Shown here one piece after another: positions 42,002-57,494 of a stretch of DNA of 64,000 nucleotides (positions are counted from its first letter, which is position 1; every line of letters begins with the position of its first letter). The position numbers were made by a program, and so were the translations under genes. This DNA is from Opitutales bacterium (lineage in GTDB: Bacteria > Verrucomicrobiota > Verrucomicrobiia > Opitutales > UBA2987), in the NCBI GenBank assembly GCA_965226885.1, contig CBDDEL010000017.1, positions 831,739-895,738 of the forward strand. Direction: 5' to 3'. The notes below the pieces were generated by a model that worked only from the letters and a program-made list of their open reading frames with translations, was not told the origin of the DNA and did no database searches.

Positions 42002-42380
42002 AAGCTAGACTAACCATTAGCTTAACTTGCACATACTCAATGCCTTATTTGGATGGGCTGATTTTTTTGGCCCTACACCCCTTTTTTGGCAAGAAAGTGG
42101 CAAGAAAAAACTCAGGTGACCGGGCATATCATTCTACCTGCCGTTCCATACCCAGAATCATGAGGTCCGCATCATGGTTCGCGAGATACGAAGTCGCATC
42201 CACAACCCAGCCGTCGTCTCATTCCTCTCCGTCTTCCTCCACCTCCTCCTCTCCCCGCATGTTCGTCCACAACAGAAGGCACTTTCCGGCGGAGAATGCG
42301 CAGGAGAACTCCGTTCAGAAAGAGTTCTCCTACAGAGACTCAAGAAGATCACACGGATATCCCTGAAATCCTGATATTTA

Positions 42381-47905: not shown

Positions 47906-48170
47906 AGGAACGCGTTTTTTTTGTCTAAAAAATTAATCACCAACCAAAGAAAATAACATGAATGATAGTCATATTGAAAGGGGCGGGTTAAAAGTGATCC
48001 ACTATGGGCGGTTTAGATTTGACCCACTTGAGGGGCTGTTTGGCTGCTGGCTGTGGAGCGGAGGCCGGAGGCCGAAGCGGAGCAGCCAGCAGCCAGCAAC
48101 CGGCGGGTTGGATAATCTTCTCAAACCAGCTATGCGGTGGTCTTTTGAACTTTTTCAAAGGATCGCCGCG

Positions 48171-49391
48171 ATGCTCAATCTGGATCAACACATGGATATT
48201 CGTCTGTTACATAAACAAGGTCACTCGATTCGCGCCATTGCGCGGATGACGGGCCATTCTCGAAACACCGTGCGCAAGGTTCTGGCGGCAAAGGGGCCGC
48301 CGGTCTTCCAAACGTCCAAGCGCAAAAGCAAACTCGATCCCTTCAAGGACTATCTGCGGGGCCGGATCGAGCAATGCAATCTGTCCGGGAGACGGCTTTT
48401 CGATGAGATTAGCGCCATGGGTTTCGACGGAAGCTACACCATCGTCAAGGACTTCGCGCGCACGTTGCGGCCTCGCCATAGCGGGAAGCTGACCGTGCGC
48501 TTCGAGACCCCGCCCGGGGAGCAGTCCCAGTGTGACTGGAGCCACTGCGGCCGTTACGAGGATACCGGGGGTCGCCGCCACAGCATCTATGCCTTTATTC
48601 TGGTGCTCGCTTACTCGCGCTTCATGTATGTGTGTTTTACCACCCGGATGCACTTGAAAACGCTGGTGCGCTGTCATCAGCAGGCTTTTGCCTATTGCGG
48701 TGGATGGACCCGTTCGATCCTCTATGACAACATGAAGCAGGTGCGCCTGGACTGGCATAGCTGGAACCCTCAGTTCATGGATTTTGCCGACTATTACGGT
48801 TTCATCTCCAAGACCCACCGACCGTATCGGCCCCGGACCAAGGGCAAGGTCGAGCGGATGGTCCATTACGTGAAGGATAATTGGCTCAACGGGCGCTCCT
48901 TCGCCGATCTCGAAGATCTCAACAGGCAAACGCGCACCTGGCTGGAGTAAACCGCCAACTGCCGGGTGCATCAAACCACCGGCCAGCGCCCCTGTGATCT
49001 GCTCAAGCACGAACAGTTGAGCGGGCTCGATTTGATCCGTCCCTACCAGTGGATAGATCGGGAGCCGCGCGTGGTCATTTCCGAGGCCATGGTCTTGTAT
49101 CACAAGAGCCACTACTCGGTTCCAGCCATTGCCGTCGGGCAGAAGGTGGTGGTCGAGGCCCAGGGGCAGCGTATTGCCATCCGTTTGGCAGATACCATCA
49201 TCGCCGAACACCGCAGGGCCGAAAAGCAAGGTCAGCGCATCGAACTCGAAGCCCACACCCGCGAGCGCTGGGACAGTGTCTTAACCGAGGCGGCCCAGGC
49301 CCGCACGGCATCTCCCACCTGGTACATCGGCCGGGCAGCGCCCTCGGTGCAGACCCGCCCCCTGACCCAATACGAGGAGGTGGCTCCATGA
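48171..49391 (+). pseudogene. istA: IS21 transposase IstA with in-frame TAA at 48948-48950
   Basis: RFETPPGEQSQCDW, YDNMK, RPRTKGKVER; the frame continues after the stop. Confidence 0.85.
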
Positions 49392-50182
49392 GCATCCTCT
49401 ACGAAGCCAAGGCGGCCGAAGCGCTGGGCGAACTGGGGCTCGCCACCGCCGCCGATCAACTCGACAGCATCGCCCAGCAAGCCGCCGCCTCAAAGTGGTC
49501 CTATTCGCACTTCCTGGGCTACCTGCTCTCGGGCGAACTGTCCAGCCGCCAGCAACGCACTATGGTCATGAACACGCGCTTTGCCCACTTCCCCTATCGC
49601 AAGCGCCTGGAAGACTTTGATTTTAAGGCCCAACCCTCGGTCGATCCCAAACTTATCGAGGAACTCTCCACCCTGCGCTTCCTCGCCGAAGGGCGCAACG
49701 TGGTCCTGCTGGGACCGCCAGGGGTGGGCAAAACGCACCTGGCCATCGCTCTGGCCGTCAAGGTCATCGAGGCTGGCAACCGCGTCTACTTTATCAACGC
49801 CATGGACATTGCCCGCAAACTGGCCGAAGCGACCGAGCGAAACCACCTGCCCAGACTGATCCGAAACCTGACCAAGATTCGTCTGCTCATCCTCGATGAA
49901 ATCGGTTACCTCGAACTATCCAAAGCACAGGTCAATCTGCTCTTTCAGATTATCTCCCTTCGCTACGAAGCCCATTTGCCCATCGTCCTGACTTCCAACA
50001 AGGCCTTCGGCGACTGGGCCAGCGTCTTCGCCGGCGATCCGGTCATGGCCTCTGCCGCTCTGGACCGGCTCCTGCACAAATCAACCATTATCAACATCCG
50101 AGGAGATTCCTACAGGCTCAAAGAAAAACGCCTGGCCGGACTCTCCACCACCATCAACCCCCAAACCTTAACCCATTCCTGA
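49388..50182 (+). CDS. istB: IS21 helper ATPase IstB
   Basis: GPPGVGKTHLA, LILDEIGY, LTSNK, LDRLLH, GDSYR. Confidence 0.92.
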   Translation: MSILYEAKAAEALGELGLATAADQLDSIAQQAAASKWSYSHFLGYLLSGELSSRQQRTMVMNTRFAHFPYRKRLEDFDFKAQPSVDPKLIEELSTLRFLAEGRNVVLLGPPGVGKTHLAIALAVKVIEAGNRVYFINAMDIARKLAEATERNHLPRLIRNLTKIRLLILDEIGYLELSKAQVNLLFQIISLRYEAHLPIVLTSNKAFGDWASVFAGDPVMASAALDRLLHKSTIINIRGDSYRLKEKRLAGLSTTINPQTLTHS

Positions 50183-52722: not shown

Positions 52723-53515
52723 CCGAGATTTCCCATATGAACATTCATAATCATTGAAAATAACTACTTTCTAATATTTCGATCCAATTATCTACTTTCA
52801 TTGTGATTTGGCAATCCTTTCCTTGGTTATTTGATGATCAAATCGGTAGTATTTAACAATTATTGCTGATTTTCCTTTTGTTCGGTCAAACATGGGAAAG
52901 GTCTTTCCTTCTGTTGGAGGTTTCCACAGCACTGGTTCCTTTTGTATCGAAAAATCTTCTTACTCACCCCGTATCAGGTGCGAGTCGCAGTCGCTCTACT
53001 CGCTTCAGCATGGTTCGAAACATTTCTCTTGGGATGGCCACCTCAGCCATCTGGAAAGTGATATACTTGGCATGGTGGACCACCTTTGCTCCGATTTTGA
53101 TGAGTATCTTCCGCAAAGAGCTCAGCATCCAGTGCTTCACCTTTGGGGGAAGGATCAACCGGCGCATGAAGTTACCCAGATTGTAGGCTAAGCCGAAGAG
53201 TTGAAGCCGAACGGCGTTGTCCTCAAAGTCATGGCAGGACAAGCGGGTCCAGTGAATGGCGTGTTTGCCCTCTTTGATCCACTGCTCTGCGGTGCCCCGG
53301 TGGTTGTAAAATTTCACTACCTTCCTGGGTGGCCAGTTCAGATTTGTCACGATGAAACCGACTCGTGCAAATAACTCTCCGGCCTGCCACTCGACCTTGG
53401 CCACCACCCGGCGAGGTCTTTGCCAACTGGCGGCTTGATACGGAAAACTGGCATAAAACACCTTGGGTGCCCGCGAGGGTCGCCCCACTGGCCGAGTGAG
53501 TAAAGGGGCGATATG

Positions 53516-54872
53516 TGAAGTGGACGGGGTTGTTTGGACAATTTTGACGTGGGATTAAGGTGGAAATCGTGTTCATATTATTTTTTAAAAATATATTTTG
53601 TCCTTAGCCAAAGACGGGCACGCAGGTGCCCGCAAGCTGTATTGGCGGGGAGGTTGGTTTTGCTCCGATTGCATGGACTTCGGCCGGGGTCCGGTAGCCC
53701 AGGGCTTGGTGGGGGCGCAGGTGGTTGTAGAAGTCCAGGTAGCGGGCTATCCCTTCGCTGGCTTCCTTTGCCGTGGCGTATTCGCGCAGGTAAATGTCTT
53801 CATACTTGAGGGTTCTCCAAAAGCGTTCAACAAATATGTTGTCCAGGTAGCGGCCACGCCCGTCCATGCTGATGCGCACCCCGGCTTGCCCCAGCACCGA
53901 GGTGAACTCGCTGCCGGTAAACTGGCTGCCTTGATCGGTGTTGAAGATTTGAGGTTGGGCCCGCCTCAGAGCTTCCTCCAGGGCGAGCACACAGAAGCGG
54001 CTCTCCAGGGTGTTGGAAAGCTGCCAGCTCAACACGTAGCGGCTGAACCAGTCCAACACGTAGCGGCTGAACCAGTCCAACACCACGGTCAAGAAAAGGA
54101 ATCCTCGGCTCAGCCGCAGGTAAGTGATGTCGCTGCACCATACCTGGTCGGGCCGCTCGACCGCCAAACCCCGCAGCAGATAAGGGAAAATGCGGTGCTG
54201 CCGGTGCCCCTGGCTCAAGTTTCGACGCGGATAAATAGCCTCCAGGCCCATTTGGCGCATGAGCCGCTGGATGCGGCCTCGTCCCACTGCATGGCCCTCT
54301 CGACGCAGCCACTGGGTCATCCGGCGAGAACCAAAAAACGGATATTGGGTGTAGAGCTCATCCATGCGATGCATGTAGAGAACGTTCTGCTCGCACTGGG
54401 CACGGGCCCGATAGTAATAGCTGCCGCGGGCCAGCCCCAGCAACTGACATTGCCTGCCGATACTGATTTTTCCTTGAAGTGGTTGCACCATCTTGCGCCT
54501 CTCACCAACCGAGTTGTTCAGACTTTTTTTTTAGCCAATCGCATTCTACTTTCAGCTTTCCAATCTCCTGGTAAAGGTGATCTTTTTCCGTCTCGTTGTC
54601 CTTGCTGAGAGTCTGCCGCTGGCGCGAAAACAGCTCCGTTGCTCCCTGCAAAAGCTGCTTCTTCCATTGGGTCACCTGGTTGGGATGCACCTCAAAACGA
54701 CCGGCGATCTCGTTGATGGTATGAGCGCCCCTGATGGCTTCCAGGGCCACCCGGGCTTTAAACTCAGCACTGTATTGTCTTCTCTTTCGTGATTTAATAA
54801 CATTCATAGGTTAGCGGATTTAGTGGTTCAAGACCACCTTATTCCACTGTCCAGTTTTCCCCGTCCATTTCA
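53516..54872 (-). mobile_element. IS3-family element (orfA 54502..54807, orfB 53604..54491)
   Basis: TIR TGAA(G/A)TGGACGGGG; TSD ATG; A-run slippery site; WCSDITY, TDQGSQF, DNIFVERFWR. Confidence 0.9.
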
Positions 54873-55444
54873 ATGTTTTTGTAAAATCGCGTTGCTCTGC
54901 AGCCTGATGGCGTAGGAAAAGTTCTCTTGCTCAAGGTAACTGTAGAGGTCCGAATTGGCGAAGGCGGCGTCACCTCGGAAAAATTGTTTCAGGGGACAGT
55001 CACGATAGCGGGTAACGACCGGTTGGAGCACCGACCACCAATCGTCGGCACTGTGCACGTTGCCTTTACGCAGGTTGGCCCGTTCCAGATCACCAAATTG
55101 GTTGAAGCAGAACAGGGGATGGTAGCAGGTGCAGCCGAAATGACCGTTGAAGGCCGAGCCTTCCTGCTTTCCGTAAGTCGGGCTTTCCGAACTATCCATA
55201 TCGAGAATCAGTTTCTTCATCCCCACTCGCCTATTCACCTGGTCAATCCACTGACCGTTCATGTCCGTCAGTACGTTCAGATTCTCAGGCTTGGTTAACA
55301 TCTGTGTTTCAAAGCGGCTCATTTCACTGGGCGAAGCGGCCGGTTGCCAATCGGCACGACCCCCCACAATCTGCCTCATGACGGGATCAAATCGCAGTCG
55401 CTCCGCATCGTTCGTATCTTGTAGGTTGCCCCAGTATGATTGCC

Positions 55445-55724
55445 CAGCTTTTTGAGTCCTTCCGAGAATGGGTCCATATAACTCGTCGGAGGAAGGACTC
55501 GAAAAAGCTGTTGATCTGTGACAGCGTTAAAAATGCCAGGAGTATCCGGGTTGGTGATGGCCAACTCAGATATGCTTCAGATGAGATCAATTCGTGTCTT
55601 GAACCGATAGGTATCGAGTTCATTACAAAGCAGCGATCCTCCGAAGCTTCCTGGCTTAATATCAAACAGTTGACAGAGCCTCATGCAAGCATGTTGAGCT
55701 CACCTCTACAAGATCGATATAAGC
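55445..55724 (+). ncRNA. Predicted IS110 bridge RNA (5' hairpin, target-binding loop, donor-binding loop); ends approximate
   Basis: Stems CAGCTTTTTGAGTCCTTCC/GGAAGGACTCGAAAAAGCTG, GCCAGGA/TCCTGGC and GCTTAATATC/GATATAAGC; loop segments match the flanking target and donor. Confidence 0.8.
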
Positions 55725-55725
55725 C

Positions 55726-56959
55726 ATGAACCAAAAAAACAACAACATTATTGCCATTGACATCGCAAAACAGGATCTGGAAGTGCGCACGGATTTTGAA
55801 CGCTTCAAAGTATCCAACAATGTTCAAGGATTTGCTCAATTACTTAAACGCACGAGCAAACTCAATCATCCATTTGTAGTTTGTGAAGCTACAGGTGGAT
55901 ACGAACGCAACCTGATGGATTATCTTTATCAAAAAGATATTTCAGTAGCCTTGGTTAATCCCTCTCGTATTCGAGCCTTTGCTAAAAGTGAAGGGGTCAA
56001 AGCCAAAACGGACCCTATTGATTCCAAAATGATTCTTCTCTTTGCCCAGGAAAAGAACCTCAAGTCCACACCTCCTCCACCTCCTAAGCGCCAGCAAATG
56101 GCAGCTTTTATGGATCGCAGAAGTCATCTCACGGAGCAGCTCACTCGAGAGAAAAACCGAGCTCAAAACAGTTCCAAATGCATTGCAAAATCAATCCAAC
56201 GCATGATCGCCGCAATCCAAAAAGAACTCGCTCGCATTGAAACTCAAATTCGTGAGATCATCGAATCGGAGCCACAACTTAAAGATCAGGCCAACATCTT
56301 GCAATCAGTCCAAGGTATCGGAGAGGTGACCACATGGTCGATATTGTCCTACCTCAGTGAACTTGGACATCTCAAACGCAACCAGATTGTAGCTTTGGCT
56401 GGCATCGCGCCTTTCAACAAAGATACTGGTTCAATGAAGGGAAAACGATCTATCGAAGGAGGCCGCGCTAAGCTCAGAAAATGTCTCTATATGGAGGCTG
56501 TCCCAAAAACCCGAATTTTGCGAATTGAAATATTCGACTCCGAACTGTATGGGAACGTAAGTCATTCAATTCCGTCAAAAACGCTGTATAAGGCCTCTTT
56601 TCGTTATAAATATAATCGCGTCAGACAGAGGTCTATGGTAGAATTGTATTTGAATATGCAAAACAAGAGAAAGGCTGACGGTGTTATAGACATCGAAATT
56701 GCCCAAAATCCTCTAAAAACGGTCTTTATAACAGCTTTATAAACAAGTTAACTCACTGTAAAACAAATGGTTATAACTTTGGGACAGCCTCTATATGGCA
56801 GCTCAAAGTGCTGCCCGGCATAACCCGGTTATCAAGGAATATGTCCAAGGGCTGATTGATCGAGGAAAACCTTACAAATGCGCGATGGTAGCTGCCATGA
56901 GAAAACTACTCATACATTTACATATACTCATCAAAAACTATCAAATTTCCCTTGCATGA
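55726..56959 (+). pseudogene. IS110 DEDD recombinase interrupted by a MITE
   Basis: [49 protein letters not shown]...AAMRKLL. Confidence 0.9.
56494..56791. mobile_element. 298-bp MITE, inverted copy
   Basis: TIR GAGGCTGTCCCAAA; TSD TATATG. Confidence 0.92.
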
Positions 56960-57494
56960 AGACACAGTTGCTTGTAACCCGCCAGGCGGCTAAAGATAGA
57001 CTGGCGAAGCAGAGCGGCTCTGCCGTGCTGGATATTTTTGCCCGTGCGCTCCTCCACCACATTTTCGCTTCCAATCGCCGTCAGTCCCAAAACTTCATCG
57101 AGTTCCCGGTAGAGTAACAATCCTGCATCACTGGTAACCTTCGCACCGTGGAACTCCAACTTGATTCGGCGGTTAAATTGAACCCGAAAACTGCTCTTTT
57201 TTGCGTCACCCATTGGATTTTAAGAATTTGCTCGCTATAAGTATATTTAAGTAACTTATTATTAAACACATAGCGCTTATTTCAAGCCAATTTTCTTATG
57301 ATGAAATGGGAAATAAGGGTTGTAATTTGGTCATATTCATGAAATTGAACGATAGGAAACTTATTCTTATCGCAGTTTAATAGTTACCAGCCTGTCGAAA
57401 TGATCTCTCGCGAATCTACCCTCCCACAAACATAATTCACTCGTCACCAGGAAATTACAAATCGGCTTCGCCGTTAATCCTGAAATACCAGCGG

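Follow-up and report, generated by a model that had tools for sequence, protein, structure and literature searches.

An IS110-group element with a bridge RNA gene readable in its left end, nested in an IS1380 transposase gene of an Opitutales bacterium

A nest of mobile elements

The window analysed here, a stretch of 64,000 nucleotides (C17:831739-895738), belongs to the genome of an Opitutales bacterium (label G000; an assembly of 5.48 Mb in 17 contigs). On its plus strand it carries, at 55420-56972, an IS110-family element that runs from a left end beginning TGTAGG to a right end ACAGTTG plus a CT core. This element measures 1553 bp with the miniature inverted-repeat transposable element (MITE) that it contains, and 1249 bp once the MITE and its 6-bp duplication are subtracted. 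An earlier note, made from the letters of this DNA, had read a bridge RNA with target and donor guides in the left end, and that proposal is the subject of this report.

The limits of the element are fixed by nine IS1380 paralogues elsewhere in the genome that carry no insert. Because window positions 55420 and 56972 are joined in these empty copies, the element is the segment 55420-56972, between two CT dinucleotides. The left copy of the CT core (55418-55419, +), the point at which the empty paralogues join, follows the left target TTCGTAT (55411-55417); the right copy (56971-56972, +) is followed by the right flank TGTAAC. CT is thus present on either side of the element and only once in the empty paralogues, with no duplication beyond this 2-nt core. 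The left junction reads TTCGTAT-CT-TGTAG (55411-55424) and the right junction ACAGTTG-CT-TGTAA (56964-56977); these, and all the guide motifs that had been listed along with them, are present where they had been placed. Terminal inverted repeats are lacking and the element is bounded by the 2-nt core, as are 27 related copies from five genomes.

The left end, a 5’ non-coding region of 306 nt (+) that codes for the putative bridge RNA, precedes a recombinase gene whose coding sequence (CDS) is in two parts on the same strand. Part 1 (55726-56493) specifies residues 1-256, with the DEDD RuvC-like domain and most of the Tnp domain; part 2 (56798-56959) specifies residues 257-309 and a TGA stop codon, after which the right end extends for 13 nt. 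The unstranded segment between them (56494-56797) comprises a 298-bp MITE at 56494-56791, with terminal inverted repeats GAGGCTGTCCCAAA, and the second copy of a TATATG duplication (56792-56797), the first copy of which stands at 56488-56493. The CDS is interrupted after codon 256.

The host, an IS1380-family transposase gene on the minus strand, survives in three pieces within 52964-57213 (56941-57213, 54870-55379 and 52964-53488), which cover positions 1-65, 82-246 and 271-417 of the NF033539 profile. Two insertions cut it, the IS110 element and one of the IS3 family (ORFs, or open reading frames, 53604-54491 and 54502-54807). The locus is therefore one of nested insertions, with the IS110 element lying inside IS1380 and itself split by the MITE. 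The domain matches on the ORFs, together with the empty paralogues, bear out the earlier placement of the element within an IS1380 transposase.

Fold and guides of the left end

Of 401 genomes sampled from the order Opitutales, 47 have homologues of the recombinase at E ≤1e-20. Our comparisons use 21 orthologues with 44-63% protein identity, which together with the window element make 22, and a further 27 copies from five multi-copy genomes. Every one of these 27 copies has the ends CT-TGTAGG and ACA(G/A)TTG-CT, and the flanks vary from one element to another but not within a genome. The same ends are found in 20 of the 22 aligned elements, that is, in all those whose right end was located.

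The 22 left ends were aligned over 365 columns (63% mean identity), and RNAalifold returned a consensus of 78 pairs, 54 of which show compensatory change. For the structure that was tested, the pairing of the 5’ TGTAGG with the right donor guide, which is trivial, was dropped and the outer stem of the donor domain was added, giving 79 pairs in 11 helices. Across the 22 elements this structure is 91.3% paired, against 37.9-46.8% when the partners are slid by 1-3 columns. None of 500 shuffles equalled it on all five measures, although shuffle counts, here and below, overstate independence and are not to be read as probabilities, since the orthologues are related. Taken alone, window positions 55535-55725 fold to the same shape (-60.5 kcal/mol, z -3.31).

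Two hairpins stand ahead of the bridge RNA proper. The first (hairpin 1, HP1; 55450-55504, +) is long, with a nearly invariant apical sequence; it comprises helices 1 and 2, with compensatory change in 12 of 20 pairs, and its arms are inverted repeats of about 20 bp. The second (HP2; 55509-55532, +) is variable in sequence and conserved in structure, with compensatory change in all eight pairs of helix 3 and 82.4% of cells paired. There follows a target-binding domain (55535-55655, +), closed by a stem of GCCAGG (55535-55540) with CCUGGC (55650-55655). It contains a 5’ stem loop (55543-55572, +) and, as seen from both fold and covariation, the stem of the target-binding loop (TBL; 55574-55588 with 55635-55647, +) and the TBL stem loop (55601-55621, +). 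The donor-binding domain (55656-55722, +) has an outer stem formed by 55656-55663 with 55716-55722, and within it lies the donor stem loop (55676-55701, +). An additional pairing, between the 3’ arm of HP1 (UCGGAGGA) and the 3’ strand of the target stem (UCCUCCGA), was considered and rejected: the two are complementary in the window, and of the informative orthologues one supports the pairing and two break it.

The hairpin at about 55531-55575 that had been described as an extra feature of the target arm is in reality the canonical 5’ stem loop at 55543-55572, as found in IS621 and its orthologues. What does go beyond the description of IS621 is the segment of about 100 nt upstream, with HP1 and HP2. 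This extra leader, with its nearly invariant hairpin, is a useful feature of the clade.

All four guides fall in loops and not in stems of the consensus fold, as the earlier note had supposed. The left target guide (LTG; UUCGUGUCU, 55591-55599, +; TTCGTGTCT as DNA) has the same sense as the left target plus core. The right target guide (RTG; UUACAA, 55623-55628, +) is followed by the complement of the core, AG (55629-55630), and then by a handshake dinucleotide, CA (55631-55632). In the donor-binding domain, the left donor guide (LDG; ACAGUUG, 55666-55672, +) equals the right end ACAGTTG, and the right donor guide (RDG; CUACAAG, 55706-55712, +) is the complement of CT-TGTAG, with the handshake AU at 55713-55714.

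These guides change together with the flanks of the elements. On the left, the target plus core agrees with the 5’ loop at 168 of 198 positions in the 22 elements, while shuffled flanks average 98.3 and none of 2000 shuffles reaches 168; the LTG fits at nine of nine positions in seven elements and at eight of nine in eight more. The lowest figure, three of nine in L020, belongs to an element whose left end had been set 22 nt too far out. On the right, the core plus target agrees with the 3’ loop at 121 of 133 positions in 19 elements (shuffled mean 77.2; 0 of 2000 reach 121), and the register of the RTG is fixed among the orthologues at 5-6 nt followed by the AG that complements the core. The LDG and RDG match the conserved element ends in all elements. 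The handshake base of the RDG pairs with target position 7 in 16 of the 22, a count equalled by 3 of 5000 shuffles, and the base that follows the core complement of the RTG is an invariant C facing the last G of the right end (20 of 20 elements). The second handshake position carries no signal (8 of 22). Consensus fold, covariation of the helices, covariation of guides with flanks and homology of the protein to IS621 together uphold the proposal that the left end has the LTG/RTG/LDG/RDG layout of IS621 bridge RNAs.

Within the 64 kb, TTCGTRTCT occurs three times, against 0.76 expected; two of these occurrences are the left flank and the guide. The third, TTCGTATCT at 42184, was considered as a target look-alike and set aside, its right side being unrelated.

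Recombinase, related copies and remnants

The ORF at 55726-56742 matches PF01548 at 1.8e-22 and PF02371 at 2.2e-11. Once freed of the MITE, the recombinase scores 190.8 bits against the NCBIfam model NF033542, ‘IS110 family RNA-guided transposase’ (cut-off 140), and it aligns with the IS621 transposase (PDB 8wt6, E 1.5e-37) and with the ISCro4 transposase (PDB 9t56, E 2.5e-35, residues 7-294). In the 8wt6 alignment the DEDD catalytic positions are occupied by D12, E, D and D, and are invariant across the 22 orthologues.

Two copies of the element from a sister genome follow the target, in line with what had been asked of other copies. One, L004, lies at an intergenic site with TTCGTGT-CT on the left, where the LTG fits at nine of nine positions, and CT-TCGTAA on the right. 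The other, L005, lies inside an IS1380 copy and has the right flank CT-TTGTAT. The recombinase of L004 is whole, a MITE-free ORF of 309 aa. This copy carries an IS200/IS605-family element (L004:807-1361; TnpA of 149 aa) with CCCCGTAGCAAGCTACGGGG hairpins on either side, inserted 5 nt from the LTG on its upstream side: the guide RNA gene is interrupted, and the recombinase gene is not.

The same MITE-free state is seen in contigs from three runs, belonging to three studies, in which both parts of the CDS are intact and the missing MITE is the only difference from the window. A joint that skips 304 nt, the MITE plus its duplication, is present in four runs, and a contig of 1253 nt from run X2 joins 55417-56484 to 56789-56973 with zero differences. 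Nature has thus performed the repair that had been suggested on paper, the restoration of the recombinase ORF by deletion of the MITE and one copy of its target-site duplication. Judged by these intact genes, a functional form of the element exists in nature.

The window copy itself is, by its sequence, now inactive because the MITE split its recombinase gene after insertion, and no other IS110-family gene is present in the assembly to supply the enzyme: the single PF01548 match in the genome is this broken copy (assembly 96.3% complete). Its bridge RNA gene is intact and readable, and six IS1380 copies with the site TTCGTAT-CT-TTGTA stand unoccupied in the genome.

The MITE is present in 19 full-length genome copies, 15 of them on C17, three on C4 and one, 70% identical, on C16. 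The 15 on C17 are confined to its last 166 kb (C17:729175-894787), where several are adjacent or nested; C4, with its three copies, is a small contig. The duplications that flank the MITE are 6-7 bp long and most begin with TA. The surroundings of the locus are likewise rich in mobile elements: positions 47958-50182, upstream of the nest, hold an IS21-like pair whose members are an integrase-core transposase and an IstB ATPase.

Several remnants of the element were also encountered. One, on the minus strand of C12 (G000:C12:156907-157291), lies in IS1380 with the left flank TTCGTAT-CT and has kept nothing of the element past nucleotide 182; the break falls immediately behind the TTCGTGTCT that codes for the LTG, where IS1380 DNA resumes. 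The same break occurs in contigs of run X5, as a loose end at window position 55601. HP1 occurs naturally both ways round: the C12 remnant has it inverted, as does an X5 contig (joint 55453/55501). In run X2, a contig follows the left end through the guide-coding TTCGTGTCT (55599) and then passes into unrelated sequence, which was found neither in the genome of the window nor in the fetched loci. The C12-type break may have arisen through use of the guide-coding DNA as half a target, or through deletion at a 4-nt microhomology (CTTG). ‘Half-match’ recombination has been described (bioRxiv 10.64898/2026.08.31.748434, in its available parts), and would yield a truncation of the C12 type if the element’s own guide gene acted as a decoy target. 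In addition, two IS1380 copies (C15:382565 and, in reverse, L005:2770-2850) read TTCGTRTCT-TGTAGGTTGCC-AGGCG; in them 11 nt of IS1380 have been replaced by the first 11 nt of the IS110 left end. These are probably scars of imprecise loss of the element.

Interpretation and comparison with known systems

Given the anatomy, the conserved fold, the covariation of guides with flanks and the family membership of the protein, we consider it highly probable that 55420-56972 is an IS110-group insertion sequence that works like IS621. Its DEDD/Tnp recombinase would be guided by a bridge RNA transcribed from the element’s own left end and made up of a 5’ stem loop, a target-binding loop and a donor-binding loop. 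In this model the LTG, UUCGUGUCU, would read the bottom strand of TTCGTGT-CT and the RTG, UUACAA-AG, the top strand of CT-TTGTAA, while the LDG, ACAGUUG, and the RDG, CUACA-AG, would read ACAGTTG-CT-TGTAG, the sequence formed where the two ends meet in the excised circle, with one handshake position after each right guide. The natural target would be a site of 14-15 nt in the 5’ part of the multi-copy IS1380 transposase gene, with a chance look-alike between genes serving as target too. The window copy would have entered one such IS1380 site, the MITE splitting its recombinase gene later. Transcription of the RNA, its binding by the protein and the chemistry of recombination are expected by homology with IS621, as far as its published accounts go.

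A number of observations weigh against this interpretation. One is the relatedness of the orthologues, which, as noted above, limits what the shuffle counts can say. An Rfam search of 55300-57100 with E up to 10 returned no bridge RNA family; its seven matches (E 2.2-9.4) were all to miRNA, snoRNA and lncRNA models, whose gathering scores of 48-97 lie far above the 13-18 bits obtained. Left flanks fit poorly in L009 and L022 (six of nine each) and in L023 (five of nine), and the right target of L016 fits at only four of seven positions. The window’s own RTG is a further case: UUACAA-AG predicts CT-TTGTAA, the flank reads CT-TGTAAC, and two of five non-core positions fit in register. RNA run X20 gave no cover of the bridge RNA region, 55420-55725; its contig spans 56417-56915 of the MITE-free gene at a depth of about 2.5, which is possibly DNA carry-over and no proof of transcription. 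A promoter-like site was not found in the integrated left end, and the candidate promoters at modelled circle junctions are weak, the best agreeing with 6-8 of 12 consensus positions; at these junctions TTGC(A/T)T and TAGGT(T/C), separated by 17 nt, are positionally conserved, the first hexamer overlapping the last codons of the gene. Finally, Thr234 (ACT, 56425-56427) aligns with the catalytic serine of IS621, S241.

Threonine at the nucleophile position recurs within the clade. It is found in 7 of the 21 orthologues with a readable motif, namely the window element, L008-L010, L012, L016 and L021, and serine in the other 14. Among the nearest 150 cluster representatives at 50% identity, 147 have serine and three threonine. 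Three multi-copy genomes hold 17 intact copies of 310 aa at different sites, and all intact copies in those genomes have threonine, which suggests that the threonine form of the recombinase is active. A literature search for a threonine variant of the bridge recombinase nucleophile (S241T) returned no relevant paper, a result that does not prove the variant unpublished. A natural change from serine to threonine at the catalytic nucleophile, in elements that have moved, bears on the chemistry of bridge recombinases.

The misfit at the right junction qualifies what had been claimed for this copy. The guides had been said to match the insertion site, and they do so on the left, where the LTG fits at eight of nine positions and the one mismatch permits a G-T pair; on the right, in register, they do not. 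TTACAA had likewise been called the reverse complement of the right target: it sits in the right place, and it is complementary only if the T of the core is counted, which puts it one base out of register. The proposed target, TTCGTRTCTTGTAA, was too short, the consensus TTCGTRT-CT-TYGTA being one base longer and the window’s right flank a -1 variant of it. In intact IS1380 paralogues the sequence here is CT-TTGTAT or CT-TCGTAA, and the reading frame continues through the site, 392-401 codons being open. Three IS1380 copies (the window flanks at 55419/56973, C17:723735 and C15:382565) are one base short after the CT core and frameshifted, and the base missing from them is at the exact crossover point of the IS110 element. 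Read from these sequences, the window’s right junction would reflect either a -1 site that was tolerated, a base lost later, or an assembly that is one T short; CTTTGTAA across 56960-56990 is the form that would be expected if the assembly had slipped.

We give some probability, though less than even, to a different history of the window insertion, in which no RNA guided it to precisely this site: the element would have arrived by recombination between IS1380 copies, or its right junction would have been altered later, and either would account for the one-base misfit of the RTG. Such a history would suit a CT-TGTAAC flank that is one base shorter than the in-frame paralogues, with a loss that shifts the transposase frame, and the same -1 state at C17:723735 and C15:382565; IS1380 copies are 85-97% alike around the site, sufficient for exchange. 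The left junction, however, is exact, and a -1 target may be tolerated, natural mismatches being common among the orthologues. Three runs show no indel in the element, and their contigs branch right after CT-T, short of the window’s right flank. Two further alternatives concern the left end as a whole. We give next to no credence to the idea that it is a structured leader that only regulates expression of the recombinase, for instance by masking its start codon, with the protein picking the target and the matches due to duplication or ancestry. The outer stem of the donor domain does end at the recombinase ATG. Against this, there is no duplication past the 2-nt core, across 22 elements the stems are kept and the loops vary in step with unrelated flanks, and each position of the layout, down to the handshake base, has its equal in the experimentally solved IS621 RNA, so far as the published accounts describe it.

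The other alternative takes the 5’ region to be mainly protein-coding, with a leader ORF of about 100 codons as the functional product and the loop-flank matches secondary. One frame of the left end does have at most one stop in 20 of the 22 orthologues, against an average of 5.7 in the other two. In the window this leader ORF spans 55436-55729 (97 aa); a conserved ATG lies at nt 17 of the left end, and the frame finishes at the recombinase start, with an ATGA overlap or TAA-GCC-ATG. It is resembled by 24 predicted database proteins of 77-149 aa (‘hypothetical proteins’), and in L021 and the database protein P0036 the leader is fused in frame to the recombinase. A coding role as the main one is nonetheless very unlikely. 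The compensatory changes preserve helices, not residues, and single-base gaps in HP1 (L018, L020 and L026) alter the peptide while the downstream nucleotides stay conserved. In addition, the frame varies at its 3’ end among the orthologues, a frame with no more than a single stop also turns up on the minus strand, in 13 of 22, and no Pfam domain is found on the 24 similar proteins.

A bridge RNA that is also translated would combine the two, and we regard as speculative and rather improbable the proposal that the bridge RNA gene of this Opitutales clade doubles as a translated leader. The stop-free frame, of about 105 codons, would cross the circle junction: it may run from an ATG or GTG overlapping the recombinase stop, through the whole bridge RNA gene, to the recombinase start. 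At modelled circle junctions it opens at an ATG that overlaps the recombinase stop in 11 of 20 scored cases, and the window fits by eye. If this were true, the start codon, otherwise concealed by the donor-loop stem, would be exposed when ribosomes passed through the leader and opened that stem. Production of the recombinase would then be tied to formation of the circle, and any one transcript would serve as guide or as messenger, not as both. HP1, HP2 and the threonine nucleophile would then be part of the same variant design.

Bridge RNAs of IS110 elements were first described in 2024, and IS621 of Escherichia coli, as presented in the available parts of those papers, combines a recombinase with a 177-nt bridge RNA whose 5’ stem loop is structurally conserved among IS621 orthologues (PMC11208160; PMC11208158). 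We compared the IS621 RNA through these published descriptions and the PDB sequence rather than by direct RNA alignment. At that level, the window element shares with IS621 a two-domain recombinase, a CT core and a left end that encodes, ahead of the gene, an RNA built in the order 5’ stem loop, target-binding loop, donor-binding loop. The 9-nt LTG has the sense of the left target plus core in both, the RTG is antisense to core plus right target, the LDG and RDG read the joined ends, and a handshake base stands behind the right guides; the donor domain, of about 70 nt, ends near the start codon. The window element differs in its left end of 306 nt, with some 100 extra nt (HP1 and HP2) ahead of the 5’ stem loop, in the 13 nt of right end after the stop codon and in the threonine at the S241 position. 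It targets a site in an IS1380 transposase gene, whereas IS621 targets repetitive extragenic palindromic (REP) sequences. A blastn search of 55420-56493 against 5,426 E. coli genomes gave no match. Metagenome contigs scanned with the intact recombinase gave 124 pattern matches and zero relatives, and a 20-nt pattern from the guide region matched once in such contigs, by chance, in unrelated DNA.

Elements of the IS1111 group, which use a seekRNA, belong to the same superfamily of RNA-guided DEDD recombinases and have their guide RNA downstream of the gene; the window element differs from them in having its RNA upstream, with only 13 nt after the stop codon. The ISCro4 transposase, known here by the title of its PDB entry (9t56), belongs to the same protein family, the likeness being at the protein level. 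A large-scale catalogue of bridge RNAs (bioRxiv 10.64898/2026.10.21.760802) reports, in its available parts, thousands of clusters, with structured motifs that lie upstream of PF01548+PF02371 genes and covary with target and donor. The motif in the window is alike in both respects, being upstream of a PF01548+PF02371 gene and covarying with target and donor. The main finding is in this sense an ordinary one: the element adds one natural guide-and-target pair to a family catalogued in thousands. Beyond that single pair, the clade is useful for its 22 orthologues, whose guides can be read and whose flanks are known.

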